From IMG/VR virus record IMGVR_UViG_3300031992_000090, positions 1,401 through 65,400 of that record: 64,000 nt of DNA; one strand, written 5' to 3'. Below, in pieces: positions 226 through 48,305 of the stretch. The position numbers were made by a program, and so were the translations under genes. The stretch comes from a virus. Lineage: Duplodnaviria; Caudoviricetes. Position 1 is the stretch's first letter. Each line of letters opens with the position of its first letter. The notes under the pieces were generated by a model. That model had not been told where the DNA came from. It did no database searches and saw nothing but the letters and a program-made list of their open reading frames with translations.

Positions 226-658
226 ATACTTAGAGCGTCCTAAGGACGTAGATACCTGTATTAAACTTCTGCATGACGACATCATTCCGCTACTTAAAGA
301 GCACTGGGATAGAGACGGTCTGCCGTTTTACGAACGACCTTTTGAGCTTAATGTAGAAGCTTTTGCACGTCTGTGGGTAACACAGGGCATTTCAATTGTG
401 CTTGCCTATGACAATGGTACAGCCGTAGGTATATTTGTAGGTGTGCGCTTTACTCCTATGAACTTTGGCGTAAAGGTTCTACAGGTTGAAAATTGTTATG
501 GGCGTACTACCGAAATTGAATCTGGACTCTATAATTATATAAAGAGCATCCGTAGCATACTTGGTTTCGAGGAGCTGTGGGTCGCAACAGATTCAAATCA
601 TACACCAGACTGCTTTGAGAAAATTCCTAAGGTGTCTGAGATTGTGCGTTATAAATAG
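209..658 (+). CDS. GNAT-like acetyltransferase-fold virion assembly protein
   Basis: ATG 209 after GAGGG. Pattern SIVLAYDNGTAVGIFVG...VLQVENCY resembles a GNAT beta-core. Position between tail and ejection genes is typical of podoviruses. Confidence 0.45.
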   Translation: MALQYKYLERPKDVDTCIKLLHDDIIPLLKEHWDRDGLPFYERPFELNVEAFARLWVTQGISIVLAYDNGTAVGIFVGVRFTPMNFGVKVLQVENCYGRTTEIESGLYNYIKSIRSILGFEELWVATDSNHTPDCFEKIPKVSEIVRYK

Positions 659-666
659 GTTAGCGT

Positions 667-1485
667 ATGACGGCGGCAAACTATAATTACACCTACGATA
701 ATAAAGTCGATCAGAAGTGCAACAAAGGCATTGATGATGACGGCAAGGGTTTGCTCTCCAATTTGTGGAGCTTAGTCCCTGCGGTAGTTGCTGCCTATAA
801 TACTGGGCAGGCGATTGACTATGCTTTGAAGCAGTACGATATTGCCAAGACCTATCTGAAAATATCCCAGTGGTGGCGTGGTTACTACAATGCCTACTTC
901 AAACCGCTTGAAGATCAGGAATTGTCAGATACTATGGCGCTGACGGAGACTACGCCGTATTACGACACTATGCGTGGCAGAGCACAGACGATTGGCAGGA
1001 TTCAGTTCAAGAATGCCGCTAATCAGGCAGTACAGTGTACCTCAGAATACTGCACTGGACTCAGACAGCAGTTACTGTTTGAGACTTCTGAGAAGGAAGC
1101 CAGAGCTATAGCTACACTGACTGGTGCCGGGTACCGCAATGAGAGATCTTACTATGAGGCACGTTCTGATGTACGCTGGAAACGTATGATAGCGACCGCT
1201 ACTCGTGGTAGAGATATGCAGGCTAATGCCGTCAATTCAGCACAGCTTGCCTACGGCATTTACGGAGACTTGGGACAGCAGGCGGCTGAGGGTGCTGTCG
1301 GTGCGGCAGCTGCCTTTAGTTATTTTGAGAACCGTAACAATACGCTATATCCTGGTTTCAGGCGTGGCACCTTAAACAGACAGCAGTCTACTCAGGCTGG
1401 TACTGCGGGGGCTAATCCAAGTTCAGGATATGTACAGAACGCCAACGGCAATTTAGTAGCTGCAGATCCGCAGCAGATGGGATAG
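667..1485 (+). CDS. Putative internal virion (ejection) protein 1
   Basis: Ala/Gln-rich helical 272-aa ORF in the ejection cluster; paralogous to the next ORF. Confidence 0.55.
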   Translation: MTAANYNYTYDNKVDQKCNKGIDDDGKGLLSNLWSLVPAVVAAYNTGQAIDYALKQYDIAKTYLKISQWWRGYYNAYFKPLEDQELSDTMALTETTPYYDTMRGRAQTIGRIQFKNAANQAVQCTSEYCTGLRQQLLFETSEKEARAIATLTGAGYRNERSYYEARSDVRWKRMIATATRGRDMQANAVNSAQLAYGIYGDLGQQAAEGAVGAAAAFSYFENRNNTLYPGFRRGTLNRQQSTQAGTAGANPSSGYVQNANGNLVAADPQQMG

Positions 1486-1489
1486 TAAA

Positions 1490-2359
1490 ATGGCTGCATG
1501 TATAGCTGCAACTGACGCGCGAGTAACTATCGCAAATGCTTCTGATGTAGGTTCTAAAGCTGGTGATACAGTATCCAAGAGTATCTCTGACGCTCGTGAT
1601 AAACAGCACGCAGATCTTGAACCGATAGCGCGCCGTATGTGCTCATGGGCGGCACCTGAGTATGGTACAGTCGGTGAGAGCTGGGACAGGAAAGCTATGC
1701 TGGCCGCTCAGATTGCTATCTATGCGTCTATCATAGGACTTAATACCTATATTCAGAATAAGAACCACGACATTGCCAGTTCTTATGCCGATATATCCAA
1801 AGACAAGTGGAACAGATTTAAGGATGCTTACGCTGCGCTCGAGAAAAAGATGATTGCGGAAGCTCAGAATACTCCTGAGCCTGTGGTAGATTACGGGGAT
1901 GCACGTAATAGAGCACGTAACGCTGTGAACTTTGCGTTCAATTCTGCTAAGTCAAGTATGACCCGATATGCTAAACTATACGCATTGTGTATGGATGACA
2001 GCTTGGATTTGGCATATGCTAAGTCAATTATGCTTGACGATACAGCTAACTATAATTACAGAAATGATGAGAATTTCCGAGACTATAAATCTGACAAACG
2101 CTGGAACCGCAGATCTGACATTCTGAACTTAGGTAGAAACACACAGGCTACAGCTTTTAGTTACGCACAGCACGCAAGCGAAGCGTTCGCAGGACTTGCA
2201 GGTGCTATAGCTCAGGCAGGTAATGGTTTATCAGGTTTATTTGGTTATCTGTTAAACCGGAACGAGACAGTATATCCTGCACAGTTCTCACAGGCGTCGC
2301 TGTTTGGCAACGGGTTCACAGTAGCCGGTGGGTTCAATCAAACCACAGTAGGTTTTTAG
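1490..2359 (+). CDS. Putative internal virion (ejection) protein 2
   Basis: 289 aa; shares RN(E/D)..SD.RW.R..GR..QA.A..AQ.A and NRN.T.YP motifs with 667..1485. Confidence 0.55.
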   Translation: MAACIAATDARVTIANASDVGSKAGDTVSKSISDARDKQHADLEPIARRMCSWAAPEYGTVGESWDRKAMLAAQIAIYASIIGLNTYIQNKNHDIASSYADISKDKWNRFKDAYAALEKKMIAEAQNTPEPVVDYGDARNRARNAVNFAFNSAKSSMTRYAKLYALCMDDSLDLAYAKSIMLDDTANYNYRNDENFRDYKSDKRWNRRSDILNLGRNTQATAFSYAQHASEAFAGLAGAIAQAGNGLSGLFGYLLNRNETVYPAQFSQASLFGNGFTVAGGFNQTTVGF

Positions 2360-2368
2360 GAGGGTGCT

Positions 2369-2890
2369 ATGCCAATCTTTATTCCTGATTTATTCGGTGG
2401 CTATCTGAAAGGGCGCCAGGCAGCTATTGCAGACAACTGGACTGACTTAAACCAGTTTAATAAGGTGCTCGGCGGTCAGATGCAGAACGCCTACAATCAG
2501 CAGACTATGGCAGACAGAGCACGTATGTCCAATGCAGCTGCAAATATATCGGACATGAACCAGGCCGTAACCGGAGCTACGGCTGACCAGCAGTTAGGTC
2601 TAATTCAGCAGCAGAAATTACAGCGTTTGAATGAGTTGAAAGCCGCAGCTGATGCGGCACAGCTTAGATATCAGACTGCGCTTGCGGAATACAATCAGCA
2701 GAATTTAGATCTTGATACTGCAGTTAAGAGAGCACAGGCTTTAAACGCTGCGATGAACCCACAGTCAGCCCAATCTCAGCAGGGTGGTACAGGTAGCGCC
2801 GGTAGCACAGGTGCCGCAGGTGGCACCGGTAGTGTGTCTATTGGATTGAATCAAACACCAATGGGCACTGGTTATGGTACTAATCAGTAA
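2369..2890 (+). CDS. Putative ejection protein, Gln/Ala-rich coiled coil
   Basis: 173 aa, N-terminal LFGGYLKG followed by a Q/A-rich helix; position in the cluster. Confidence 0.5.
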   Translation: MPIFIPDLFGGYLKGRQAAIADNWTDLNQFNKVLGGQMQNAYNQQTMADRARMSNAAANISDMNQAVTGATADQQLGLIQQQKLQRLNELKAAADAAQLRYQTALAEYNQQNLDLDTAVKRAQALNAAMNPQSAQSQQGGTGSAGSTGAAGGTGSVSIGLNQTPMGTGYGTNQ

Positions 2891-2907
2891 TGACATAGGG
2901 TAGAGCT

Positions 2908-4185
2908 ATGGCAAAGTATGATCCGAAACTAACACAGCTTGTAGATCAGGCACTGGATACTCCTCAAGCAAAAGCTTTCCTCGATATGATACAGGCATCT
3001 GAGGGAGGTGCGTTCGACCGTACTTTCGGCAATGAGCAGTTTACTGACTTCTCCAAGCACCCGAATAAATCTGTAGCCTTTACCGATAAGAACGGCAGAC
3101 AGTCCTACTCCACAGCGGCAGGTGCATATCAGATTTTAAAGCCTACATGGGACGACATTTCAGGCAGAATAAATGCTAAAGATTTCTCAGAGCGCAATCA
3201 GCGCAGAGCCGCTTTAGCTTTAGCTTTCCAGAAACCTGGCATGTATCAGGCGATTATGCAGGGCGATCTGAATAAGATTGTAGACGGTGCCAACAGCATC
3301 TGGACGTCTCTCCCTAATTCCGCAGAAGGACTGAAACGCCACGCTGTCCGTTCAGGTGACTATATTACCCGTGCTTATAATTCTGCCCGTCAGAGTTATG
3401 GTCTGCCTACTGTGGCAGGCTATCAGGGCAGTACTGCAACCGGTGCTGCAATCTCTCCTATGAGCAGCAACCAGAATTTCTTTGCCAATATGGCAATGAA
3501 CTCAATCGGTGGTACAGGCTCTTTCTACGACCGAGCAATGGATACGATCCGCAATAAGACATGGTCAGATCCGGGCAGTATCCCATTTGAGATGATGAAC
3601 AGTAACGTAGGCAACCGTACTGTGTTCGGCGCACCTGACCTTACCAATCCTCAGAATGTAGACCGTCTGTTAAACCGTCTTGAAGATACAGATCCTACCC
3701 ATCAGTATGGGCTGTCTTTCACTGACAACGGTCTGCGTCCTACTGTTTCAGTACAGGATACACAGGGTCGCAGAGTAGATATGATAGAGAACCAGCAGGG
3801 GAATATTGCCCGTGCCTTTGTAGACGGTAAGCCTGTAGATCCGTCCGCTATCTCTATTGCACCGTCCTCAGCTCCTATCACACCTGTACAGGCTACGCTT
3901 GCTCCTCAGGCGCAACAGACTGTCATGCCTACTCCTGATATGCTGCAGCCAGACGAGGCTATTGTCCCAGTCCAGCCGCGCAATCTAGCTGTATCAGGGG
4001 GAACATCTGCAGCAGGGGATATCCCTCTCCCTGTGAACGCTGCTGCTGTTGTTCCCCCTGATACTCCTATTACACCTGTGTCGCTGTCACAGCAGTTAGC
4101 CGCAGCCATAGGCGGCGATCCTCTCACTCGTGCTCTTAATGAGAACAGAGATCCTAATGATTTAGCACGTCAGTTATTCGCCTAA
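2908..4185 (+). CDS. Virion-associated lytic transglycosylase (lambda R-like muramidase domain plus Pro-rich tail)
   Basis: AFLDMIQASEG ... STAAGAYQILKPTW motifs are characteristic of lambda-type lysozymes; lies in the ejection cluster. Confidence 0.75.
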   Translation: MAKYDPKLTQLVDQALDTPQAKAFLDMIQASEGGAFDRTFGNEQFTDFSKHPNKSVAFTDKNGRQSYSTAAGAYQILKPTWDDISGRINAKDFSERNQRRAALALAFQKPGMYQAIMQGDLNKIVDGANSIWTSLPNSAEGLKRHAVRSGDYITRAYNSARQSYGLPTVAGYQGSTATGAAISPMSSNQNFFANMAMNSIGGTGSFYDRAMDTIRNKTWSDPGSIPFEMMNSNVGNRTVFGAPDLTNPQNVDRLLNRLEDTDPTHQYGLSFTDNGLRPTVSVQDTQGRRVDMIENQQGNIARAFVDGKPVDPSAISIAPSSAPITPVQATLAPQAQQTVMPTPDMLQPDEAIVPVQPRNLAVSGGTSAAGDIPLPVNAAAVVPPDTPITPVSLSQQLAAAIGGDPLTRALNENRDPNDLARQLFA

Positions 4186-4235
4186 ATTGTATTTGTTGAC
4201 ATATAATATAAATATATTTCAATGAGGGAATTTAT

Positions 4236-7200
4236 ATGCCATCGTCTAATTATGATGTCCCAAAGCCGGTCGGCTCTTTACCTAAACCAATAGACTACAG
4301 TTCCTCCAGCGGCGGTCGTTCATCTGCCGCTGCCGTCAACGATCCAATGCGACTTGCGCAGGAGATGGCACGTAATCAGAGACGTGCGCAGGCGCAGGCT
4401 AACAGGAAACCTACCAAGAAAGAGCAGGAAGAAGCTTTAAAGAACGCCAAAGAACAGCTGCTGACAAGTGCTGAACTGGAAGCACAGCAGTTAATTGACA
4501 ACGATCCAACTTACAGGAACGGAACCTATCAGCGTAAGAACGAGCTGTTAGACCATTACGAGAAGAATATCCTCCCGCAGATTTTGGCAGCTAATCCTTT
4601 ATTACGTGATGACGCTGTTCTGCGTGCCAATGTCCAGAGCAGAATTAAATATGTCTTTGACAATGCCCGTAAGGATAACGAGACTGCGTCCAATTTCAGT
4701 ATGGCTCAGGAGGCGTGGGCTTTAGGACAGTCACTTGGTCGTGGTGGTGACATTGCTTATGACAGCGCATCTACACTTGCGCAGGCTTTAAGAAACGCAT
4801 CACGTACGGCGGCTGATGATGAGCGTGCTCGTGTTATAAAACAGATTGAGGATAATTACAATACTCAGCTTGATGAACTGAATACCAGACAGCAGATGTT
4901 CAATGGTGATCCGGATACACAGAACGCTATTGAACAGCAGAAACAGCAGTTAATCAGAAACCGTAACGACAGTATGCGTCGTCTGGAGGAGAACACAGCC
5001 AGACTGCGTGCTGACGATGCCAAGCAGATTGCACTTGAGACTCAGGAACTTCTGAAAGAATATGCGAAAACTGCAGAGAATGAGCAGGCTCGTCGTGCAA
5101 GTAACGAGGCCTATAGAGAAACACAGTTAAGACAGGACGAGATTCAAGATAAGTCCTGGGGTCTTTCCAGGAACAATCGTAAAGTAGCAACCATAGCCTC
5201 ATGGCTTTTGGAACAGGTACCTCAGTTAGCTGTTACGATTGGTCTGACAGCAGCAGGTTCAGCAGTAGGTGGCGGTGCGGGAGCTGCTACCATGCTGGGT
5301 CTTACCAGTGCTGTTCAGGGTATGGGTGATGCTGGTATGCAGATATTCAGCGATATCATCAATACTCCAACTGAACAGCTTAAAAACTCTGAGGACTATC
5401 AGGAGATTTACCGCAATCTAGAGGGAAAGTATAAAGATCCTGTAGAGCGTGAACAGCTGGCAAAAGCCTATCTTGCCTACAATGCTATGAGCGAGGCTTT
5501 ACCTACAGCCGGTGCTGTATCAGGTGCGCTGTCATTCTTAGGACCAGAAGCTTTAGTTACAAAAACAGGTGTGTTCAATCGTCTGTTAGACAGTAAATTG
5601 CTGAACGCTACCAATTACAAAGGTTTCAATCTTCCTGGTATAGATAGACTCGTCCAGGTATCTCCTACTGCTGCCGTACGTACTAATGCTGCCGCTAACG
5701 CTATAGCGCAGCGCGCTCCACGAGCTGGTGCTATGGCGATACTTGGCGGTGCCGGTGAAGTTCCTGAGGAAGTAGCGCAGCAGGTTCTAGGCAATGTAAC
5801 CTACAGTGATGCTACCGGTATTCAGCGTGATCCATTTGAGGGTGCAGGACAGGCAGCCCTGCAGGCCTTTGCTACAGGCGGTCTTGTCGGTGGTATCGGT
5901 GGATTGTTAACCAGTCCTAGTGTAGCTCCGGAAACCGCAGGCACCACAGGAGCAGGACAGACTGGTGCTCAGACACAGCCAGCTCTGCCACAGCAGGCAC
6001 AAGCTGATACAACATTTACAGGAGAGTATCAGCCAGGTTATCGCTCGACAGATCTTGGTACACCACCTAGACAGGGACAGACTATAAATGTTCCACCTGA
6101 TATGCAGCAGCCGTTACTTTCTGACCAGCCTAGACTTACGGCACCACAGAATACAGCTGTACAGAATACAAACGTACAGACCGGCACAAATGCGCTGACT
6201 ATGCAGGGCAGACTCCCCGCTCCTCCGCAGCAGCTGCCTAATATGCCAGCTCCATTGAACGCCGCTGAACAGGCACAGGCTAACCAGATTCAGACCATGC
6301 TCACTGAGCCTGTCATTACACCTCCGCTTACTGATGCGCAGTCTCAGGCTATTCAGGCTGTACGCAATATGCTGACTGAGTCTGCTCCTACATCAGTAGA
6401 AGGCAGCATCGCTAACATGATGGCGTCAGGACAGCTTAACCCTGCGGCCATAAACACAGCCAGCGGACCTACTGAACAAGCCGTCGCTAACATGATGGCT
6501 CGTGCTCCTACGCCTGTAGAGGGCAGCATCGTTAATATGCTGGCATCGGAACAGCCTAACCCTGCTGCAGTTGCGAACACAAACAACGGACTGACCGAAC
6601 AGGACATCGCTAACATGATGGCTCCTGCTCCTACTGTAGAGGGCAGTATCCGTAATATGATGGGTACAAATCAGGTAAACCCTGCTGCAGCTGTCCTAGA
6701 TCCTAACAGCGGTCTGACTGCACAAGACATCGCCAACATGATGGCTCCTGCTCAGACGAGTACCGTAGCCAATACCTTACAGGAGACACCAAATGCTAAC
6801 CTCAGAACAAATCAGGGAATTGATCTTACAAATAGCCAGGCAACAGCCAATAGACCAGGAAACAGCCCTGCAATTGGATCCGAAAACTTTACGCCTGCTG
6901 CTGGAAGTAGTGCAGCAGCTCAGAGCGCAGGGACTGGCAGGACCTCACGTCAGGACGCCAGAACGCCTGCTGTGGATGTATCATCTAATCAAACAGAGAC
7001 TGGCGGGACAGGAAGCAGAGCCGGACGCCGACCAGATAATCCAGTCGCTGATACCACAGGCACGTCAGCAGATCTTGGGCAACGAGGCGGTGTTAGCCCG
7101 TCAGTCCAACGCACAGGCGATGGTGAACGCACAGAAGCAGATGGCAGCACTCAACCGGCCAGGTCTAATGTAACCAGTGACAGAACCGACCTGGGTGAGT

Positions 7201-10200
7201 CCGTTATGGACTTCTCCCCGGTTGATACATCGGAGGTTGACAACTTAGTTGCCGTTGCTGACACGTTAAAGCTTAACGCTGTGAACGTGGTATCTCCTGC
7301 CTACAGTCAGAGACTGCAGGATTTACAGAGGAATTTTACCGAGCAGGTAAACAGCGTGATTAAACAGTCAGGACAGAAACTAAGTCCTGACGATATAGCA
7401 GAGGCGGCCAATGCCTATGCGCAGTTAGTTATCCGTCTTGAGAACACGCTTGCTTACGTGACACAGGCCTCAATTGAGAACGGTGTTTTAAGTGACGTCC
7501 AGATACAGTTCAGTAATGACCTTGTTAACCGTGCCTATGGCAGATTCAATCCTGTTACCAAAGATTTACAGGTTTATTTCTACGAGAAAGACAAGCGCAA
7601 ACTTGCAGAGGTTATCAGTTCTACGACCTTTGCCCATGAGTACATGCACAACACAGTTGACTATGTACTAACTCATGTGAACTCTATACGCAGGCTGGCT
7701 GACAGCGGTAATGAGGCGGCCAGACAGTTCCTGCAGGATTTCAGCGACTTTGCGCACTACTGCGGTATTCCTGAGAATGTGGATCCATTCTGCGAGGCTA
7801 ACTGGTACAAGCAGGACAATGACAAGTTCCCGCATGAGAATGCCGCAATGCTGTTCGCTGATTACATAGTCGGCAACAAGCCGCTGCCTAGAGACACAGG
7901 ACTGAACCATCTCTACAGAGGTGCTACGAATTTTGCACGGCGTCTGCGTGACGGCTACCGTATGGTTATTAACTATATCAAACAGGTTATTGATTCGCTC
8001 AAAGCAATGTTTGAGTCCGGTAATGACCAGTTTGATTCTACCCATCAGAGCTTCGTAGCTAAGACCAAAGTAGATATAGCAGCCCATAATTTTCCGAACC
8101 AGGATCAGGTCTTTAACTTCTTTGACAAGCTCCTGAGTGATTTCTATGCTGACCTTGCGCATGAGCCTGTAGGTCCTGCGATTGAGCCTGACGACAATAT
8201 CGCAACTTTCGTAGGCGCACAGATAGACAGTTACAATATGGCAGGACAGTATGCAAGTGACGGCATGGACTTGCCTAATTCTATGCGCATGGCTGATGCT
8301 TATGTGGCTGAGTGTGTACGTGTGGCAAGTCTTACTGATGCAGAAAAGACATATGAAGCTGTACAGCGTCAGCAGGATCTAATAGCCAGCGCCATTGCTG
8401 AGGATCCAGGTCTATTGGTAAATTCAGCCGATGGTCAGACTGACCTTGAATCAGTTACGGTGGCCATGACCTCTGACACAGCTCCATATGACGCAGTCCA
8501 CGGGATTGTAGATCCTGTGATCCACGGTCTGTCCACTGTGAACGATCCGTCTATTGATGTAATGTCGCTTCCTGATAACAGCTACGAGATAGAGCCTATC
8601 TTCTCAGAAGAACAGGAACAGCAGATAAAATCAGAACTGACTGTGGCTATCAATGACGAGCTTGCCAATGGTCTGACAGGAGATTCAACTCCTGTTACCG
8701 AGCGTGAGTGGTTCAGTGCGTTTATCAACAACGGCGGTATCGTTGATGAGAACGGTTACCCACAGCCGCTCTACAGAGTAAACCACCAGCTTTCTACAAC
8801 ACCTAGCGGGAAAGAGCTTGAGACTGTAACCTACGGGCGTATGGAGAATCCTGTACGTGCAGGCGATAAGCTTGAGAATGTGGCGGCTTCGGAACGTGCA
8901 GCCGTACGAGACTTGATAAACCGTGTACAGACTGCGGTAAAGCAGAACAGACTTGATACCTTCGAGCCTACTGATAAAGACTTAGAGGCTCTGTTCAATG
9001 CGCAGATTGACGCCATCATTGCCCGTAATGCGGCAGGAGACGAGGTTTACTATATCCCAAGTCTGTTAAATGCCGCTGACTACGCCGAGATGGATCTCTA
9101 TGACTTTGGTCCTAATGTGGTCCGTCTGTCTGCCAGCCGTTACAATGCAATACTGCGCAGCCGTCCGCAGGCTAATCAGGCTGAACCTCAGACTGAGAGC
9201 GAACTGCAGGAGCAGCTGTCCCAGATTCTGCATCAGTTCCATCTTAAACAGGAGAGCCAGTTAAAAGACGGGCGTTATGCGCAGGCGGTACGAGTAGCTA
9301 ATGGCAGTAAGACTTTAGCTCAGGCTGAGGCTTACCGTACTGCAACTGTAGGACCGTACAGAGCCAACGGCTGGATGCGAGGCGCAACCCGTGTGCGTTA
9401 TGAGATAGTTGACGAGAACGCCTATTTCAGATTGTGGGTAATAGAATATTTTGCTACTACAGAAGGAGCGCTTGACAGCCATCCGCTTTACAGGACATAC
9501 GTCATTACACCGTCTCAGATCCGCGGCGCCAAGCAGGAACTGTACATGCGCTTTCAGCAGCCTATGAACCGCTGGATGCGTGAGAGAGCCAAAGAGTTCG
9601 GTATCAATGCTGATGTGTTTGCACATGACATAGGACAATTCTACACAGATCTGCATACCATTGAAGCCAATGTGCAGATGGAGAAAGAACTCAACGAAGC
9701 ACTGGCTAAAGCTCAGCTGGTTGAAGACCAGACTGAAAGAGCACAGGCGGTTAAGAACGCTCAGGATACTCTCAATAAATTCTACGAGCGCCAGAAAGAT
9801 AATACAAAGCGTTTTGGTATCCCAGGCGGCAAGTCAGTCGCTCAGTGCCGTACAGAGATGCAGGAGCTTGCCGCCAAGTATGGTGATGAGATTCTGCAGG
9901 ACGGCGTGGCTATGTTCCAGAAAACCATCAAAGATCTGGTAACTCTGCTGATTGAACGCGGCGTACTGTCTGAGGAATACGTAGCCTCGTTCGGTGACTG
10001 GTCGTTCTACTGTCCGTTAATCACCAAGGCAGGCTACAATGAGTCAGCTCCTAATGACGCTGCGGTTATGTTCCCGTCTAAACTTGACTATGCTCGAGAG
10101 GGATCTGAGCACCCTGCCGTTGACGCCTATACAGCCTTATCTTTCATCATCCATAAGAGCGGTAATGCTTTAGGATCTACAGCACTTGGACGTGAGGTTG

Positions 10201-12542
10201 TGGCAAGCTATGAGATCCTGCGCAACCGCTACTCACAGGGAGCTTATAACGCAAGCAATGAGCGCCAGTACAATCAGACCATCAACGGTGTTACAAACAG
10301 ACGTGAACGGTTAGGCAATCTGGAAATTAACTATTACAATGGTCTGGCAGTCGTACCTACTGCTGACCTGATGCAGTACTATGAGACGGCTATAAAAGAT
10401 CCTAAGGCACGCAGACGGGAGATAAACCGTAAACGTGACCTGGTTGTACGTGTGCTCCGTCCTGAACAGAAGAGGATTGCTCCTGAGGCGTACGTAGATG
10501 AGGGACAGATGAACAGATCTGTTTCTTATTCGGTTATCTTCGATGACAGCACTCCTGAGATGCAGCGTGTAAAAGAAGCTTTCAGGAGACCGTTCTTTAT
10601 AGATACAGACGCAAAAGAGAAATGGGGCGCAGAAGCTATATATGCCGTGCGCCGTGTAACCTCAGAATATGCGCAGCTGAATACAACCTGGAAACCACTC
10701 TTCCCTGTGTTCAACAGCGAGCGTGACTTCATAGAAAAGCTGAACTATGTGTTTACACGCAATTACCGTGACGACCAGGGCGCACGTGTGAACGGTGCCG
10801 TAGTGGCCAAACGCTACGCTGCCAATCTGCGCTACACACCTCAGATTGTACAGGCTGCCATAACCAATCAGCCTGAGACAATTGAGGGTAAGGTTGGTGA
10901 GTACCTGGTTGAGTTCCAGCGTCAGGGCATTATGCAGGTCAGCAGTCTGCAGACAGCTCTGGAGAAATCAGGACGTGTAACCTCAGCTTTTGTCGAGGGC
11001 AAACTCCAGAAGTTAGTTCCGGATCGTACTAAGCGTGAGCAGATAATAAGAGCACTAAGAACCGGAAAATACCCATTCAGTAAATGGGCTGAGATACTGT
11101 ACTCTATTCCTACATTCTGCGTGTACAAGGCTTTCCGTGACAGCGGACTGAACCCTAACGCTGCGCATTTCCATACCATTGAGCTGATGAATCTGGAGAT
11201 GAAAGGTCATCTTACCGGCAAGCTGATGCCGTTATTCCCGTTCATTCCGTCTATCACACAGACAGCTACTAATCTGGTAAGTTCCTATGGTTTTGACGTA
11301 GGCTCTTTTGGTTCTGTCAAAGAGGCTGACAAATACAGCAGAACTATCAGAGCATGGGGTATGCATTTTGGTATAACAGCATTAGCAAGCGCACTCATTC
11401 CAATCGTTGCTGTTATGTTAGGAGACGGTGACCAGGATAAAGGCTACAAAATCATGGATCAATGGTCTATCCAGTCGATAAACTTCTTCCCGATTCCGTT
11501 GGGCAGTCAGGATTACTACAAACAGCAGTTAGGTTTTGGTCCTGCCGTATTCAGTAATCAGGCAGCGTTTATAGTGAACCGTGTACTGCGTGGACAAATG
11601 ACCCTGGGTGAAGCAGCGTCTGCTTTAATCGGCAGTTTCATTCATAACGTTTCACCAGTTGCAGGACCGCAATGGGATATTGATTCCTGGGAAACTTTCT
11701 TCCAGAAAGTAATAGCAACGGCACTCCCAAGTGTGGTCGCACCAGTGGGCTATTTGTTTGGCTTTAACAAGAACTATTTCGGCAATACCATAAACCACCC
11801 TGAGTATATGTCTTATGGACAGCGTAAGTCTGATGTGGACGTACTGACAACTGAACAGACATTCAAAGATCTGGCTAAGTCTATATATGACGCAACTGGA
11901 GGAAAATTTGACCTGACCCCTGAGTCTATCAAAGAGTTTATGAAGTCCTATGCTACCGGAGTCTTTGCAGGTATATTTAACTATGTCACGGAAGATCCAC
12001 TAGCTAAGGATCCAGCCTACAAATCTACGGCTGAGATACTTGGTCCTATGTGGACATCTTTCGGTCTCACAATGGGATACGGTACAGTCGGTAACGTTGA
12101 CCGTCAGCTATACTATAAGTATCAGGAGTTCTACGAGGAACAGATTGAACGAGCAGGACTTGGTGACGCTATCAAAGTGACAAAAACAGGCGCAGCCAAT
12201 GCCACTGAGAGCCGCAGGAAAGTTTTGACTGAGGCTGGGTTCAACCAAATGTTTGTTGATGATGTTGCAAACTTAACGGATCTGAAAAAGGAACTTGAGA
12301 ACGTAACTAAAAAAGCCAAGAAAGATTTGGATAATGCATGGGCTAAGGGAGAGCCAGAAGCAGAGTTTGCTAGAATTATGAACGTTATGCGTTCCACGCA
12401 GAACATACTCATAAGCAATAAGATGAAAGAAATAAACCTCTATAAAGGGAAAATCACCAGAGTTGCTATGATGGAAAGTGTAGACGAGACTATAGCTTCT
12501 GGTAAACCACAGCTCATCAGAAACGAGGCAGGAGGCAGATAA
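4236..12542 (+). CDS. Giant internal virion / large polyvalent protein (2768 aa)
   Basis: Uninterrupted ORF with coiled coil, hydrophobic Gly/Ala segments, low-complexity linker and HEYMH (HExxH) at 7635-7649. C-terminus resembles LPD38-type domains (from recall). Confidence 0.7.
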   Translation: MPSSNYDVPKPVGSLPKPIDYSSSSGGRSSAAAVNDPMRLAQEMARNQRRAQAQANRKPTKKEQEEALKNAKEQLLTSAELEAQQLIDNDPTYRNGTYQRKNELLDHYEKNILPQILAANPLLRDDAVLRANVQSRIKYVFDNARKDNETASNFSMAQEAWALGQSLGRGGDIAYDSASTLAQALRNASRTAADDERARVIKQIEDNYNTQLDELNTRQQMFNGDPDTQNAIEQQKQQLIRNRNDSMRRLEENTARLRADDAKQIALETQELLKEYAKTAENEQARRASNEAYRETQLRQDEIQDKSWGLSRNNRKVATIASWLLEQVPQLAVTIGLTAAGSAVGGGAGAATMLGLTSAVQGMGDAGMQIFSDIINTPTEQLKNSEDYQEIYRNLEGKYKDPVEREQLAKAYLAYNAMSEALPTAGAVSGALSFLGPEALVTKTGVFNRLLDSKLLNATNYKGFNLPGIDRLVQVSPTAAVRTNAAANAIAQRAPRAGAMAILGGAGEVPEEVAQQVLGNVTYSDATGIQRDPFEGAGQAALQAFATGGLVGGIGGLLTSPSVAPETAGTTGAGQTGAQTQPALPQQAQADTTFTGEYQPGYRSTDLGTPPRQGQTINVPPDMQQPLLSDQPRLTAPQNTAVQNTNVQTGTNALTMQGRLPAPPQQLPNMPAPLNAAEQAQANQIQTMLTEPVITPPLTDAQSQAIQAVRNMLTESAPTSVEGSIANMMASGQLNPAAINTASGPTEQAVANMMARAPTPVEGSIVNMLASEQPNPAAVANTNNGLTEQDIANMMAPAPTVEGSIRNMMGTNQVNPAAAVLDPNSGLTAQDIANMMAPAQTSTVANTLQETPNANLRTNQGIDLTNSQATANRPGNSPAIGSENFTPAAGSSAAAQSAGTGRTSRQDARTPAVDVSSNQTETGGTGSRAGRRPDNPVADTTGTSADLGQRGGVSPSVQRTGDGERTEADGSTQPARSNVTSDRTDLGESVMDFSPVDTSEVDNLVAVADTLKLNAVNVVSPAYSQRLQDLQRNFTEQVNSVIKQSGQKLSPDDIAEAANAYAQLVIRLENTLAYVTQASIENGVLSDVQIQFSNDLVNRAYGRFNPVTKDLQVYFYEKDKRKLAEVISSTTFAHEYMHNTVDYVLTHVNSIRRLADSGNEAARQFLQDFSDFAHYCGIPENVDPFCEANWYKQDNDKFPHENAAMLFADYIVGNKPLPRDTGLNHLYRGATNFARRLRDGYRMVINYIKQVIDSLKAMFESGNDQFDSTHQSFVAKTKVDIAAHNFPNQDQVFNFFDKLLSDFYADLAHEPVGPAIEPDDNIATFVGAQIDSYNMAGQYASDGMDLPNSMRMADAYVAECVRVASLTDAEKTYEAVQRQQDLIASAIAEDPGLLVNSADGQTDLESVTVAMTSDTAPYDAVHGIVDPVIHGLSTVNDPSIDVMSLPDNSYEIEPIFSEEQEQQIKSELTVAINDELANGLTGDSTPVTEREWFSAFINNGGIVDENGYPQPLYRVNHQLSTTPSGKELETVTYGRMENPVRAGDKLENVAASERAAVRDLINRVQTAVKQNRLDTFEPTDKDLEALFNAQIDAIIARNAAGDEVYYIPSLLNAADYAEMDLYDFGPNVVRLSASRYNAILRSRPQANQAEPQTESELQEQLSQILHQFHLKQESQLKDGRYAQAVRVANGSKTLAQAEAYRTATVGPYRANGWMRGATRVRYEIVDENAYFRLWVIEYFATTEGALDSHPLYRTYVITPSQIRGAKQELYMRFQQPMNRWMRERAKEFGINADVFAHDIGQFYTDLHTIEANVQMEKELNEALAKAQLVEDQTERAQAVKNAQDTLNKFYERQKDNTKRFGIPGGKSVAQCRTEMQELAAKYGDEILQDGVAMFQKTIKDLVTLLIERGVLSEEYVASFGDWSFYCPLITKAGYNESAPNDAAVMFPSKLDYAREGSEHPAVDAYTALSFIIHKSGNALGSTALGREVVASYEILRNRYSQGAYNASNERQYNQTINGVTNRRERLGNLEINYYNGLAVVPTADLMQYYETAIKDPKARRREINRKRDLVVRVLRPEQKRIAPEAYVDEGQMNRSVSYSVIFDDSTPEMQRVKEAFRRPFFIDTDAKEKWGAEAIYAVRRVTSEYAQLNTTWKPLFPVFNSERDFIEKLNYVFTRNYRDDQGARVNGAVVAKRYAANLRYTPQIVQAAITNQPETIEGKVGEYLVEFQRQGIMQVSSLQTALEKSGRVTSAFVEGKLQKLVPDRTKREQIIRALRTGKYPFSKWAEILYSIPTFCVYKAFRDSGLNPNAAHFHTIELMNLEMKGHLTGKLMPLFPFIPSITQTATNLVSSYGFDVGSFGSVKEADKYSRTIRAWGMHFGITALASALIPIVAVMLGDGDQDKGYKIMDQWSIQSINFFPIPLGSQDYYKQQLGFGPAVFSNQAAFIVNRVLRGQMTLGEAASALIGSFIHNVSPVAGPQWDIDSWETFFQKVIATALPSVVAPVGYLFGFNKNYFGNTINHPEYMSYGQRKSDVDVLTTEQTFKDLAKSIYDATGGKFDLTPESIKEFMKSYATGVFAGIFNYVTEDPLAKDPAYKSTAEILGPMWTSFGLTMGYGTVGNVDRQLYYKYQEFYEEQIERAGLGDAIKVTKTGAANATESRRKVLTEAGFNQMFVDDVANLTDLKKELENVTKKAKKDLDNAWAKGEPEAEFARIMNVMRSTQNILISNKMKEINLYKGKITRVAMMESVDETIASGKPQLIRNEAGGR
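6380..6750 (+). repeat. Three imperfect ~40-aa repeats (EGSIxNMMA...NPAA...TxQDIANMMAPA) in the giant protein
   Basis: Recurring CATCGCTAACATGATGGC-like DNA motif, six IANMM-like copies. Confidence 0.85.
6793..7173 (+). CDS. Candidate nested +1-frame gene inside the giant protein gene
   Basis: AGGAG (6781-6785) upstream of ATG 6793. The 126-aa product is L/Q/A/E/I-rich and helical-looking, while the host frame there is disordered. Confidence 0.5.
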   Translation: MLTSEQIRELILQIARQQPIDQETALQLDPKTLRLLLEVVQQLRAQGLAGPHVRTPERLLWMYHLIKQRLAGQEAEPDADQIIQSLIPQARQQILGNEAVLARQSNAQAMVNAQKQMAALNRPGLM

Positions 12543-44392: not shown

Positions 44393-45166
44393 ATGGCTGA
44401 CGTAACACATGGCAAGTTTGTCTTTAAGGACAGCAGCAACAACGCTGGTACAGTTCTCGGTTTATCTGCAAATGACATCAGCAAGATGAACGCCAAGGCT
44501 ACTCTGGACGTGGTAAGTTCCGCAAGTGCTTCAATAAGTAACAAGCATGGTGAGCTGTTCCCGGCCACTGACCGTCTGACTGCTCCTGACACTCACTATC
44601 CGGTTGTCATTCAGGCACACTTTGTCACCGGCGATATCAAGCAGACCATGAACCCGAATTTTGACGCCACCGAGTGGGTGCTTGGCAATGGCGCATTAGT
44701 CCCAAGAACAGGAGCTTACAAAGATCTGTGGGAGTTTGCCAACGACCTCGGCCTTGTCAGAGACGCCTCTGCCCAGGCAAGCTATGAGAGTAACCCTTCC
44801 ACCTTTGAGGGTCTGTCCTACGGTCCTGGTGACGGCTCCACCACTTTCCAGCTCCCCGATTTCAGAGGGCGTGTAATACAGGGCGCAGATGCGTCCCATG
44901 CACTTGGTCATTTCATTAAAGCTGGGTTACCTAACATAACTGGACAAACAGGAAGTTGGGTAAGGTACAGAAGCATAACTACAAGCGGCGCCATATACAA
45001 AAGTGCTGACCAAACACAACAAGGTCAGGGCTTGGCTGATCCAAGTTCAGGCTTTATCGTTTATAGTGGACTCGTGTTAGATGCATCTGGTTCAAATAGC
45101 ACCTACGGAAATAGCAATACCGTTCAACCTTTAGCCGTATCGAGCTACAACTTAATCAAACTGTAG
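44393..45166 (+). CDS. Collar-domain tail fibre A with invertible C-terminus (cassette A expressed)
   Basis: GNG..V.R..Y.DL...YGPGDGSTTFQLPDFRGRV collar motif; PNITG crossover at codon 180. Confidence 0.9.
   Translation: MADVTHGKFVFKDSSNNAGTVLGLSANDISKMNAKATLDVVSSASASISNKHGELFPATDRLTAPDTHYPVVIQAHFVTGDIKQTMNPNFDATEWVLGNGALVPRTGAYKDLWEFANDLGLVRDASAQASYESNPSTFEGLSYGPGDGSTTFQLPDFRGRVIQGADASHALGHFIKAGLPNITGQTGSWVRYRSITTSGAIYKSADQTQQGQGLADPSSGFIVYSGLVLDASGSNSTYGNSNTVQPLAVSSYNLIKL
44930..44944 (+). repeat. Shufflon 1 crossover site A (expression site)
   Basis: CCTAACATAACTGGA. Confidence 0.9.
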
Positions 45167-45378
45167 GTAGATACTGCTTCTTGCTGAACAGTTGAAACGC
45201 TGTCGCTGTAAATGGCATTACTGCTTGAGGCTTTAAATTCGAGATACACATAGTATCCCTCAAGCGACCCGTCCGGTAATGGAGCATTGCTAGTAAACGA
45301 GGTGGTAGCAAAACAGCCCGTGTGCCGATAACCGTTTGCGCGTGCTGCTACATCGGCTTGTGTTCCAGTTATGTTAGG
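45145..45378 (-). other. Silent C-terminal cassette B (77 aa)
   Basis: PNITGTQADV...VSTYSLIKL*, starting at the inverted site 45364-45378. Confidence 0.9.
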
Positions 45379-45391
45379 GAAAAATTTAAGC

Positions 45392-45616
45392 CCTAACATA
45401 ACTGGAGATATACACGATATGTATGGTGGTGACAGAACTGTTAGCGTCGCATTTAGCCGTTCGACTATACACGCTAGTACTATGAAAGCAGAAGCTGGAA
45501 ATAACATGGGTAGTACAACTGTTTATTTCGGGGCCTCGTATGCTAACTCGATTTATGGAGCTTCTACAACCGTACAATCACCAGCTATAAGTTCTTACAG
45601 TTTAATTAAACTGTAG
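45392..45616 (+). other. Silent C-terminal cassette C (74 aa)
   Basis: PNITGDIHDM...ISSYSLIKL*, site 45392-45406. Confidence 0.9.
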
Positions 45617-45819
45617 GTAGATACGGCTAAAGATTGTACAGTGTTGCTTGTGCCGTAAACTGCACTCGAACGAGACGCATTAAAGGTTATTCCCCAATAC
45701 CATTGTTCACTTCCAGCAACGTTAGGTGCAAGTCCTGTAAGACTTGTGTTAATAGCAAGAGCTCCACTCGCAGTCTTTAAAGGCGATGTTAATGTTGTAA
45801 AATCTCCAGTTATGTTAGG
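45595..45819 (-). other. Silent C-terminal cassette D (74 aa, not in ORF track)
   Basis: Hand translation PNITGDFTTLTSPLKTASGALAINTSLTGLAPNVAGSEQWYWGITFNASRSSAVYGTSNTVQSLAVSTYSLIKL*; site 45805-45819. Confidence 0.9.
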
Positions 45820-45892: not shown

Positions 45893-45987
45893 CTGTGCCT
45901 GGCACAATAGCAGAAAACGGCAGATACAGTCACAAATGGCTAAGTGGTGCGGTTTCCAACCTAAATCCTGAGCACAGCGGGCACATT
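45893..45987. promoter_or_regulatory. Arm-like GCACA site set, copy 1
   Basis: CTGTGCCTGGCACAATA plus direct GCACA pair at 45972 and 45981. Confidence 0.7.
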
Positions 45988-46026: not shown

Positions 46027-46063
46027 ATGAATATACGCATGTGTACGATTAATGGAGAATATT

Positions 46064-46669
46064 ATGGCCACAGTAAGTCCGTCCAATTTTAAATTTGTAA
46101 ATGCATCTGGTGATGACGGTGAGGTAAAGTCCCTGTCAGATGCTGACATTACTCTTATCAACAACTGTTTGCAGGACGTTGAGAATTTAAAATATACCGC
46201 TTTAAGCTCGCTGCCGTCTGGAAGTATGATCCATTTTGCAGGTAACGTTGTCCCTGCCGGGTTCCTCGTCTGCAACGGTGCAGCCGTAAGTCGTACTGAC
46301 TATGCAAATCTGTTCGCTGCCATTGGTACTCTCTATGGAGCCGGTGACGGTTCTACCACCTTTAATCTGCCTGATGCCCGTGACAGAGTCCTCCAGGGAG
46401 CTTCTTCAACATACGCAGTCGGAACCCGCATTGCGGCTGGGTTACCGAATATCACGGGAAAAGTCTATTGGAGTAATGCTGGGAATCCCGCGGCTAGCGG
46501 GGAAGGTGCACTATATTGGTCGATGAACGATGCTGCGGGTACTCGTGTCACTGATGAAGGTTATCCAGCAAACATTAGTATCGACGCCTCTCGATCAAGC
46601 TCATATTACGGCGTTACTACGAAACCTCAAATAGACGGTATATCGGTTTACACCTTAATCAAAATATAA
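46064..46669 (+). CDS. Collar-domain tail fibre B with invertible C-terminus (cassette E expressed)
   Basis: GGAG RBS; LPSGSMIHFAG..VPAGFLVCNGAAVSRTDYANLFAAIG...GDGSTTFNLPD collar motif; CCGAATAT at 46445-46452. Confidence 0.9.
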   Translation: MATVSPSNFKFVNASGDDGEVKSLSDADITLINNCLQDVENLKYTALSSLPSGSMIHFAGNVVPAGFLVCNGAAVSRTDYANLFAAIGTLYGAGDGSTTFNLPDARDRVLQGASSTYAVGTRIAAGLPNITGKVYWSNAGNPAASGEGALYWSMNDAAGTRVTDEGYPANISIDASRSSSYYGVTTKPQIDGISVYTLIKI

Positions 46670-46872
46670 GACGCTACAGCAGGCGCTTGTACTGTAGTTA
46701 CTGAATCACTATAAATCGCATTGCCAAGCGACAGGTTGAAGTATGGATCTATATTTTTTGATTGCGCTACGGTTTCGACATTTTCTCTTGAAGTGCCAGG
46801 ATTCAAAAAATAAGTCGCCCCTGCGGTGGCACTTGATCTGCCTATCATAGACCATCCACCCCGAATATTCGG
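46648..46872 (-). other. Silent C-terminal cassette F (74 aa)
   Basis: PNIRGGWSM...VASYILIKV*; inverted core CCGAATAT at 46865-46872. Confidence 0.85.
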
Positions 46873-46944: not shown

Positions 46945-47039
46945 CTGTGCCAGGCACAATACGGCTTTTCATCCATCTGACAATAAACTCTAGCCTTATC
47001 AGTTATTTGTCCTGATATCTGCGGCACATTGAGCACAGC
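46945..47039. promoter_or_regulatory. Arm-like GCACA site set, copy 2
   Basis: CTGTGCCAGGCACAATA plus direct GCACA pair at 47024 and 47033, overlapping the integrase 3' end. Confidence 0.7.
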
Positions 47040-48132
47040 CTTTTGAGCAGAGGTAATCCCACCAGTTTTGCAGAACAATTCTGCGCTGTGCCGTAAGCTG
47101 GGAGTGCATGTAGGCCTGGACGGTTTCCGAGCCGGTGACATGGGCAAGCATACTCTCTGCCACTTCAAAAGCTACGCCCTGCTCTGCCATCCATGTGCGT
47201 CCTGTAGCTCTAAGCCCATGATGGGTGGTGACACCGCTCAGGTCACTGGCTTTAAGCCATTTGGTAAGCGCCTGCACATGGACATGCTTTCCGCGTCCTA
47301 TTCGCCATATATAGGGGCTTCTGCTGTGGTTCAGGTATTTGATTTCGTCCAATAGATTTATGACAGGCTGGATCAGCGGTACCGTATGGTCACGTCTTTT
47401 TTTCATAAATCTGGCAGGAATGGTCATCACATCATCGGTGATCCATGACCACTGCATCTGGCTGACCTCATTGGGGCGCAGCATTGACCAGACACAGAAC
47501 GTGACATAGATTTGCCAGGCTCTCTCCTCCTGTGAGCACAGACTGAACAGCAGATTGAGATTCTGCGGGTTTATATAGGGGTGGTGTCTGACGCATTTAG
47601 GCGGGAGTATGCGGGAGAGCTGGGCTGCCACGTTGGCATCTACCAGTCCTGCGGCTTTGGCAAGATTGAGCATCTCATTTATGCGCATCAGACAGCGTCT
47701 GCGGGTTGCAGGTCTGTCCTTGAGATTGTCAAGGGCCTCGAGTATTTGAGGTGCGTTTAAGCTGTCCAGTTCACATTTTCCCAGTTTGGTTATGATATAC
47801 TTCTCGATGCGTTTTTTCTCATTCGGATAGGAAGTCAAGCTCTTTTTCTTGTCTCTCCAGAGATAGAACGCATCCCATAGGCGTGCTCCTTCTGATGATT
47901 TCAGTCCAAGTCTTGCTCGTATTTTGTGCGCTTGAGCTCTGGCCTGGACGATGGTCATGGGAACACGGCCTAGGGTGATGTCTCGCACTTTGCCGTGTTT
48001 ACTGTAGCGGAGCACATAAGTTTTCACGCCAGAGGGGAATACACGGACAAACAGACTTTCCCCAAGTTTAAAGGTATAGCGTTTGGTTTGAACCGGCAGA
48101 CGGTTGATGGTTTGTTGAGTTATCTTATTCAT
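46999..48132 (-). CDS. int: Tyrosine recombinase (P4-type integrase with arm-binding domain), probable shufflon invertase
   Basis: AGGAGG before ATG 48132; N-terminal LFVRVFPSGVKTYVLRY arm domain; catalytic LRPNE, K, HGLR, LAH and AY. Confidence 0.9.
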   Translation of the reverse strand: MNKITQQTINRLPVQTKRYTFKLGESLFVRVFPSGVKTYVLRYSKHGKVRDITLGRVPMTIVQARAQAHKIRARLGLKSSEGARLWDAFYLWRDKKKSLTSYPNEKKRIEKYIITKLGKCELDSLNAPQILEALDNLKDRPATRRRCLMRINEMLNLAKAAGLVDANVAAQLSRILPPKCVRHHPYINPQNLNLLFSLCSQEERAWQIYVTFCVWSMLRPNEVSQMQWSWITDDVMTIPARFMKKRRDHTVPLIQPVINLLDEIKYLNHSRSPYIWRIGRGKHVHVQALTKWLKASDLSGVTTHHGLRATGRTWMAEQGVAFEVAESMLAHVTGSETVQAYMHSQLTAQRRIVLQNWWDYLCSKGCAQCAADIRTNN

Positions 48133-48305
48133 ATCGTTAACTTTCCTCCTATTAATTTGATAGTACATTTTTCGGAAAGTTGCATTAACTTGTAGATAAT
48201 TAAGCGTTTACACGCAAGACTTGTGACGGATTGTGTGAAATTCTTTTGTTTCTGACATATAATAAGACTAGTTATGTAACTTAACACTTGAGGAGTTAAT
48301 TCCAA

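Follow-up and report, generated by a model that had tools for sequence, protein, structure and literature searches.

Tail-fibre tips determine the bacteria to which a phage attaches. In the gut virus examined here, the 3' end of a collar-domain fibre gene is followed by three further, silent versions of its tip, which raises the question of whether the phage exchanges these tips by DNA inversion, and by which enzyme. We analysed positions 1401-65400 of a 65.4-kb IMG/VR virus record, which is rated complete. This stretch of 64,000 nucleotides is called the window, and all coordinates refer to it. Judging from the architecture of the locus, its recombinase and its relatives, we consider it likely that the cassettes behind fibre A, termed array A, form a shufflon that exchanges the receptor-binding tip of this tail fibre. 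The parts of array A are the following.

44393-44929, plus strand: constant part of fibre A (open reading frame and translation), ending in ...HFIKAGL and including the collar domain; its sequence directly before the core is GCTGGGTTA
44930-44944, plus strand: site 1, the putative crossover core in the expressed gene (codons PNITG)
44930-45166, plus strand: cassette A, the tip now expressed, 78 aa
45145-45378, minus strand: cassette B, silent, 77 aa, converging on A
45364-45378, minus strand: site 2
45392-45406, plus strand: site 3, facing site 2 head-to-head, with a spacer of 13 nt (45379-45391) in between
45392-45616, plus strand: cassette C, silent, 74 aa
45595-45819, minus strand: cassette D, silent, 74 aa
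45805-45819, minus strand: site 4, the terminal site of array A, adjoined by the flank GGGAAAGGGG

The exact 15-mer CCTAACATAACTGGA occurs four times, in the orientations +, -, +, - and at the positions listed for sites 1 to 4, just as a sequence-only reading of the window had described; there is no further copy in the 65.4-kb record. Allowing up to two mismatches, we obtained five matches in the window, namely the exact 15-mers and one stray site, compared with 0.14 expected, and none of 100 shuffles reached five. The same reading had stated that each 15-mer opens an in-frame cassette of 74-78 aa, that cassette A alone is fused to the collar-domain fibre and that the upstream flanks of the sites differ. 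Our translations yielded four open cassettes, each running from PNITG to Y(S/N)LIKL-stop, of which A continues a 257-aa open reading frame (44393-45166) with a Pfam Collar domain, and the four 5' flanks were all found to be different. Shufflons are recognised by at least three short alternating sites that bound invertible segments, here the four exact 15-mers, and by segments that are alternative C-terminal parts of one constant gene, here four cassettes of which one is fused.

When the four cassettes are compared pairwise in 15-nt bins, nucleotide identity reaches 100% within the core, drops to 29-30% in the adjoining bins on both sides, and climbs back to 63-83% over the final 45 nt. The cassette proteins A-D are 39-48% identical to one another. 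The identity of the 15-mers at the nucleotide level is not forced by the protein, since PNITG is encoded by different synonymous codons in fibre B and in the relatives. A search for dyad symmetry within the core and its surroundings gave no convincing result.

The convergent pairs A/B (45145-45166) and C/D (45595-45616) each overlap by 22 nt. In the C/D overlap, 20 of the 22 nt form a perfect palindrome (45596-45615), so that YSLIKL-stop is encoded on both strands. The overlap palindrome is centred on TTAATTAA (codons L-I-K) and hence gives the same C-terminal peptide from either strand. Overlaps of 22-28 nt between convergent cassettes are also present in five of the relatives described below (L048, L070, L102, L104 and L107); for other lineages, a perfect palindrome TCAGTATTTAATTAAATACTGA, deduced from the peptide and not from DNA, would give QYLIKY-stop on both strands. 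The reverse complement of the core contains an ATG (window 45371, plus strand, and 45397-45399, minus strand). Together with the 13-nt spacer, it provides the silent cassettes B and C with an in-frame ATG seven codons upstream of PNITG, which may be a coincidence; we saw no clear ribosome-binding site for these two ATGs.

The Pfam Collar domain of fibre A spans residues 133-162. A sequence search of solved structures with fibre A gave chance matches only, and Foldseek alone retrieved nothing for its model at E ≤ 0.001. The AlphaFold model has a pLDDT of 69.7, with the N-terminal 75 residues being poor. With VIA, residues 67-257 of the model matched the tail fibre of cyanophage A-1(L) (8kec, Z 10.7) and T4 gp12, both in the baseplate (5iv5, Z 7.9) and as the receptor-binding domain (1ocy, Z 7.8). 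The Collar domain and these structural matches over residues 67-257, the latter obtained with a model of moderate quality, assign fibre A to the gp12-like collar tail fibres. According to the model alignment, the swapped 74-78 residues are the part that follows the collar, where gp12 has its receptor-binding head. The tips A-D presumably differ in receptor specificity.

Array A is followed by a second collar-domain fibre with an array of its own, array B, and by a tyrosine recombinase gene.

45893-45985: distal flank motifs of array A, candidate arm-type sites
45894-45906, plus strand: palindrome of array A, TGTGCCTGGCACA; reported match TTGTGCCAGGCAC at 45895-45907, minus strand
45971-45985: direct TGTGC pair of array A, in non-coding DNA
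46052-46669, plus strand: fibre B, the second fibre with a collar domain; the expressed cassette spans 46445-46669
46648-46872, minus strand: silent cassette of fibre B (PNIRG...YILIKV-stop), convergent
46945-47037: distal flank motifs of array B
46946-46958, plus strand: palindrome of array B, TGTGCCAGGCACA; reported match TTGTGCCTGGCAC at 46947-46959, minus strand
47023-47037: direct TGTGC pair of array B, inside the 3' end of the integrase gene
46999-48168, minus strand: tyrosine recombinase of 389 aa, candidate shufflon invertase, with the Pfam domains Arm-DNA-bind_3, Phage_int_M and Phage_integrase

The expressed and the silent site of fibre B have only 8 nt in common, CCGAATAT. The tyrosine recombinase, whose gene lies 127 nt past array B, is the sole recombinase in the 65.4-kb record. 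All three of its Pfam domains score above their cut-offs and the residues R-K-H-R-H-Y are present, as in a P4-type integrase with an arm domain; these catalytic residues (R231, K256, H317, R320, H343 and Y353) are invariant among its relatives. NCBIfam PRK09692 matches the protein below its cut-off. A tblastn search of 72,556 plasmids with the integrase hit 523 records, all at less than 30% identity. None of the 52 listed was an annotated Rci or shufflon recombinase, and the E. coli plasmid match that we inspected was an IncF integrase fragment. By its sequence, the enzyme belongs to the P4-type integrases that carry an arm-binding domain, and among the plasmid matches listed nothing pointed to a similarity with Rci. 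A search for the serine recombinase domain PF00239 found none in the whole 65.4-kb record at E ≤ 1 and was positive in 13 of 14 control genomes, which rules out a serine invertase of the Gin/Cin/Min/Pin type.

Relatives of the integrase with 41-47% identity were found in many gut assemblies, one of them named from a Succinatimonas bin, and the clade is one of Succinivibrionaceae prophages. The host of the window phage is probably a gut member of the Succinivibrionaceae as well. Viral contigs yielded no integrase relative with either a single-protein or an alignment query. In all long contigs examined, the integrase gene converges on a Collar fibre gene 0.7-1.6 kb away, with alternating cassettes between the two. 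The metagenome contigs L070 and L101-L108 have 2 to 8 cassettes in this interval (silent or array cassettes: five silent in L070, six in L102 and L103, eight in L104-L106, seven in L107). We then applied a clade profile to 98 Succinivibrionaceae genomes and obtained 8 matches of at least 327 bits, followed by a gap down to 222 bits or less. Six of these 8 top-scoring integrases have arrays in their 1.5-kb flank and another lies on a contig cut inside the first cassette (7/8), as compared with 1 of the 22 lower-scoring P4-type integrases, which has a single cassette nearby. A further mark of a shufflon, a dedicated recombinase gene beside the array, is therefore found in the integrase at 46999-48168 and the association of its clade with arrays.

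A second, different integrase is present near the element edge in L048, G001, L101, L102, L104 and L110, which speaks against a role of the array-adjacent enzyme as the integrase of lysogeny. In L107, the array-adjacent integrase lies near host-like genes at an apparent prophage edge, which would also be compatible with an integrating role for this enzyme. On L048, a 217-kb JGI contig, the region 382-4487 ahead of the fibre module contains the second P4-type integrase, which is 28% identical to the array-adjacent one, together with a partner gene of 283 aa and one resembling NikA. The same pair of an integrase and a 280-aa protein occurs 37 kb from the array in a Succinivibrionaceae bin (L099). 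The second integrase and its partner of ~280 aa may be the integration module of these elements.

In five proteins with 73-90% identity to fibre A, the sequence does not vary as far as GLP(N/D)I and is wholly divergent beyond. The reference phage collection contains no near relative by DNA or protein; a genome scan with the fibre alignment returned nothing, and a second scan returned distant collar fibres only. Among the relatives with arrays, the closest one (L048-L050) encodes, in the same position, an integrase that shares 96% identity with that of the window. This phage, represented by four assemblies of animal and gut samples (L048-L051), has four cassettes on fibre A and at least five on fibre B, and its sites have CCGAATATTA in common. 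Fibres A and B of another phage, L053, stand back to back, with neither a silent cassette nor the integrase. No cassette of the window recurs in a relative above ~51% identity, and among the relatives we found none above this level that is expressed in one and silent in another. In L052 (3886-7168), a 502-aa gene, bAvd and a reverse transcriptase replace fibre B, the array and the integrase, next to a fibre A of 77% identity. These genes make up a diversity-generating retroelement (DGR), so that sister phages have diversification devices of two different kinds at one and the same position.

Evidence for rearrangement at the sites comes from related genomes, whose integrases are 43-47% identical to that of the window. 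L107 and L108, derived from two samples, share an identical integrase protein and flanks that are 100% identical over 2196 and 417 nt. Compared with L107, one pair is inverted and two pairs are absent in L108, all breakpoints lie at sites, and a different tip is expressed. Throughout the integrase gene and the terminal flank, L115 and L116 share 98.9% identity; only the middle pair is present in L116, and the breaks are again at sites. L111 and L112 have the same sequence as far as the terminal site and are unrelated beyond it. Four contigs (L109, L110, L113 and L114) break off after 10-14 nt of the terminal site, as branching of the assembly graph at this point would lead one to expect. The contig L009, with six cassettes and the core CCTAACAT as in the window, has at its end an inverted copy (99%) of one of its internal cassettes. 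The rearranged contigs of the relatives are possibly mixed walks through a population graph, and they thus prove recombinant junctions, not whole-molecule structures. Metagenome and bin contigs of relatives, including L120, were also seen to break inside or just past the terminal recombination site.

For the phage of the window, exact scans of viral and metagenome contigs with the constant part and the core found no other contig and thus no isoform, and the large protein database held no protein in which the constant part is fused to B, C or D. The head-to-head site pattern occurred in L009 only among viral contigs. A second assembly (Logan contig, run SRR9006729) has an identical fibre A and the same layout as the window. 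The four assemblies of the L048-type phage (4/4) are all in one configuration, which suggests that switching may be rare, or that assemblers report the majority form only.

These data suggest the following mechanism. The constant part of fibre A ends with the codons G-L, and the codons P-N-I-T-G that follow would be the recombination site itself. The four tips of 74-78 aa are arranged in two convergent pairs, and inverted copies of the site delimit each pair. The integrase (46999-48168) would bring a (+) and a (-) site together and flip the intervening DNA, joining another tip in frame to the constant part, with eight configurations and four proteins as the possible outcome. It had been proposed from the sequence that inversions employing only the terminal site would suffice to reach every cassette; our enumeration bears this out, in that there are 8 configurations and such inversions bring 4 of 4 tips into expression within 1, 2 or 3 steps. 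We infer that array A of the window still inverts, and that the integrase at 46999-48168 performs the inversion.

Within the site, the crossover probably takes place in the first 8-10 nt, CCN-RAY-AT, since this is the only stretch that is always identical within every array. The cores vary by lineage (CCTAACAT, CCAAATAT, CCCGATAT, CCGAATAT and CCAAACAT), and their first 8-10 nt are constant within each array. Tyrosine recombinases need identity in the overlap region. Given this requirement and the different cores, arrays A and B of the window phage would stay apart, and one enzyme may serve both, with synonymous recoding of the core (CCTAACAT versus CCGAATAT) keeping them separate. As a general rule, insulation of arrays by core recoding fails in L048, where both arrays use CCGAATATT.

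How firmly does the evidence point to a working shufflon driven by this integrase? Array A could be a fossil, which no longer inverts or does so too rarely for tip A to be anything other than effectively fixed. We regard this as unlikely. While the lack of an isoform of the window array in the sequences scanned, the mere 8 nt common to both fibre B sites and the single state of the 4 L048-type assemblies would fit such a fossil, four perfect 15-nt sites, four open cassettes and intact catalytic residues are unlike decay, and related arrays do rearrange. It is scarcely credible that the pattern arose by chance, or that several fibre alleles were stitched into one contig during assembly. The record is indeed metagenome-derived, but no shuffle out of 100 reached the observed count of 15-mers, the independent Logan assembly has the same gene layout, and many unrelated samples and genome bins show this architecture too.

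The question of the enzyme is a separate one, as a host enzyme or general recombination might invert the array while the integrase only integrates the phage. The full P4-type architecture including the arm-binding domain, as well as the host-like genes near the integrase of L107, speak for this explanation, which we nevertheless hold to be very improbable. The relative that has no cassettes, L053, has no integrase either, and in the window the gene sits between fibre and lysis genes, not at the element end. Moreover, the clade tracks arrays in 7 of 8 genomes versus 1 of 22 for other P4-type integrases, and several relatives possess a second, different integrase. The phage has replication genes of its own (DNA polymerase, primase-helicase and helicase), and we found no lysogeny gene among the proteins sampled from the window genome. 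As to general recombination, repeats of 15 nt are below the length for RecA-type recombination, and hence too short. An array that is inverted by the phage integrase therefore remains our preferred reading.

Several known systems resemble array A in part. The shufflon of R64 comprises a constant pilV part, convergent cassettes, asymmetric sites and the recombinase Rci. Like the window, this R64/IncI1 pilV shufflon joins one constant N-terminal part to segments with two convergent C-terminal cassettes, and it has short asymmetric alternating sites and a tyrosine recombinase gene directly behind the array. The two differ in their target, which is a conjugative pilus adhesin in R64 and a phage tail fibre in the window. 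Unlike in R64, the sites of the window lie in frame on the conserved codons PNITG, and its enzyme is of the P4 type with an arm-binding domain. Our description of the R64 layout follows in part the review by Komano 1999, to the extent that it is cited in PMC13418256. The sequence-only reading had attributed the logic of R64 and Min to the window: the constant part, the convergent pairs, the alternating sites and the adjacent tyrosine recombinase agree with this assignment, but no likeness to Rci showed among the plasmid matches listed, and a serine recombinase is absent. Mu Gin, P1 Cin, p15B Min and FRphi gin also alternate fibre C-termini by DNA inversion. Switches of the Gin/Cin/Min type rely on serine invertases, an enhancer and Fis, in contrast to the window record with its lack of a serine recombinase. 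A Gin-type shufflon has recently been linked to receptor choice (PMC13418256).

Tail-fibre shufflons with phage tyrosine recombinases are already published (PMC6109161, PMC13596623). Rin from Bifidobacterium prophages, described in 2018, is a tyrosine recombinase with 11-bp asymmetric rix sites and alternative C-termini of a receptor-binding protein; its isoforms were seen in prophage and virion DNA, and the authors ask how deletion is avoided (PMC6109161). Rin and the window have in common a phage-encoded tyrosine recombinase adjoining several alternative C-terminal cassettes, and short asymmetric sites. However, Rin has no arm-type domain, whereas the window enzyme has one and conserved TGTGC motifs are found on one flank only. 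Fibre family, host phylum and site sequence differ as well, and the overlapping palindromic cassette ends are particular to the window system. In a BV01-like Phocaeicola phage, reported in 2026, a multi-cassette array of ~1.7 kb lies at the 3' end of a tail-fibre gene and is flanked by a recombinase, with all configurations seen in reads (PMC13596623). That array has three cassettes, 10-bp motifs with extensions, and variable lengths resulting from different stop codons, whereas the window encodes in-frame tips of near-equal length with a common C-terminal peptide. What is new here is an arm-domain P4-type integrase clade dedicated to arrays, conserved flank motifs on one side, the location of the sites on codons conserved in a collar fibre, cassette ends that overlap and are palindromic, two tandem arrays, and the breadth of the family in Succinivibrionaceae-type gut phages.

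Each of the two arrays has, outside its last site, a copy of the palindrome TTGTGCC(A/T)GGCAC at a distance of 73-74 nt from the core, with the direct TGTGC pair farther out. Apart from these motif islands, the flanks of A and B are unrelated. A four-way flank alignment with L048 showed the motif islands and a short G-rich stretch beside the core to be conserved, and nothing else. Moreover, a TGTGC-N3-GCAC palindrome is located 47-92 nt from the terminal site in 8 of the 9 lineages examined. The TGTGC motifs on one flank, together with the arm-binding domain, suggest predicted arm-type sites for the N-terminal domain of the integrase.

From this we derive a tentative and, in our own estimate, rather doubtful proposal, in which an arm-domain integrase was recruited as invertase and its arm-type TGTGC sites are confined to the distal side of every array. 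In that case, the terminal site would correspond roughly to attP and the in-frame armless sites to attB, and every event would use the terminal site. If true, such 'prefix reversals' would still reach all tips, and there would be a bias against events between two armless internal sites. This would also answer the puzzle raised by the armless Rin, namely how a shufflon with a tyrosine recombinase controls site pairing. An observation of its own concerns the invariant C-terminal CAxCA peptide of the integrase, which is encoded by TGTGC-N4-TGTGC (47023-47037 in the window, and at the 3' ends of the relatives' integrase genes). Since these codons are the same DNA motif as in the non-coding DNA beside array A, protein motif and DNA site may be coupled.

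With four ready tips on fibre A and two on fibre B in one gut phage, and up to eight in relatives, host-range calls from single assemblies will be incomplete, and contigs will tend to break here. Loci of this kind will be systematically truncated or mis-joined in assemblies. The family is compact and well defined: its elements are a collar fibre, sites of the form PN/DI-x-G, and a P4-type integrase accompanied by flank motifs. It occurs in many animal-gut samples. It thus offers a natural system for studying how tyrosine recombinases choose partner sites in shufflons, and its short orthogonal sites could serve for in-frame protein swapping.

The rest of the genome encodes, besides the three replication proteins named above, a terminase, a portal-like protein and a protein of 2768 aa. 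The open reading frame of the latter (4236-12542) has no PHROG match and is preceded by a lysozyme/peptidase-like protein of 425 aa (2908-4185). The 2768-aa protein is probably an internal or ejection protein of the virion.
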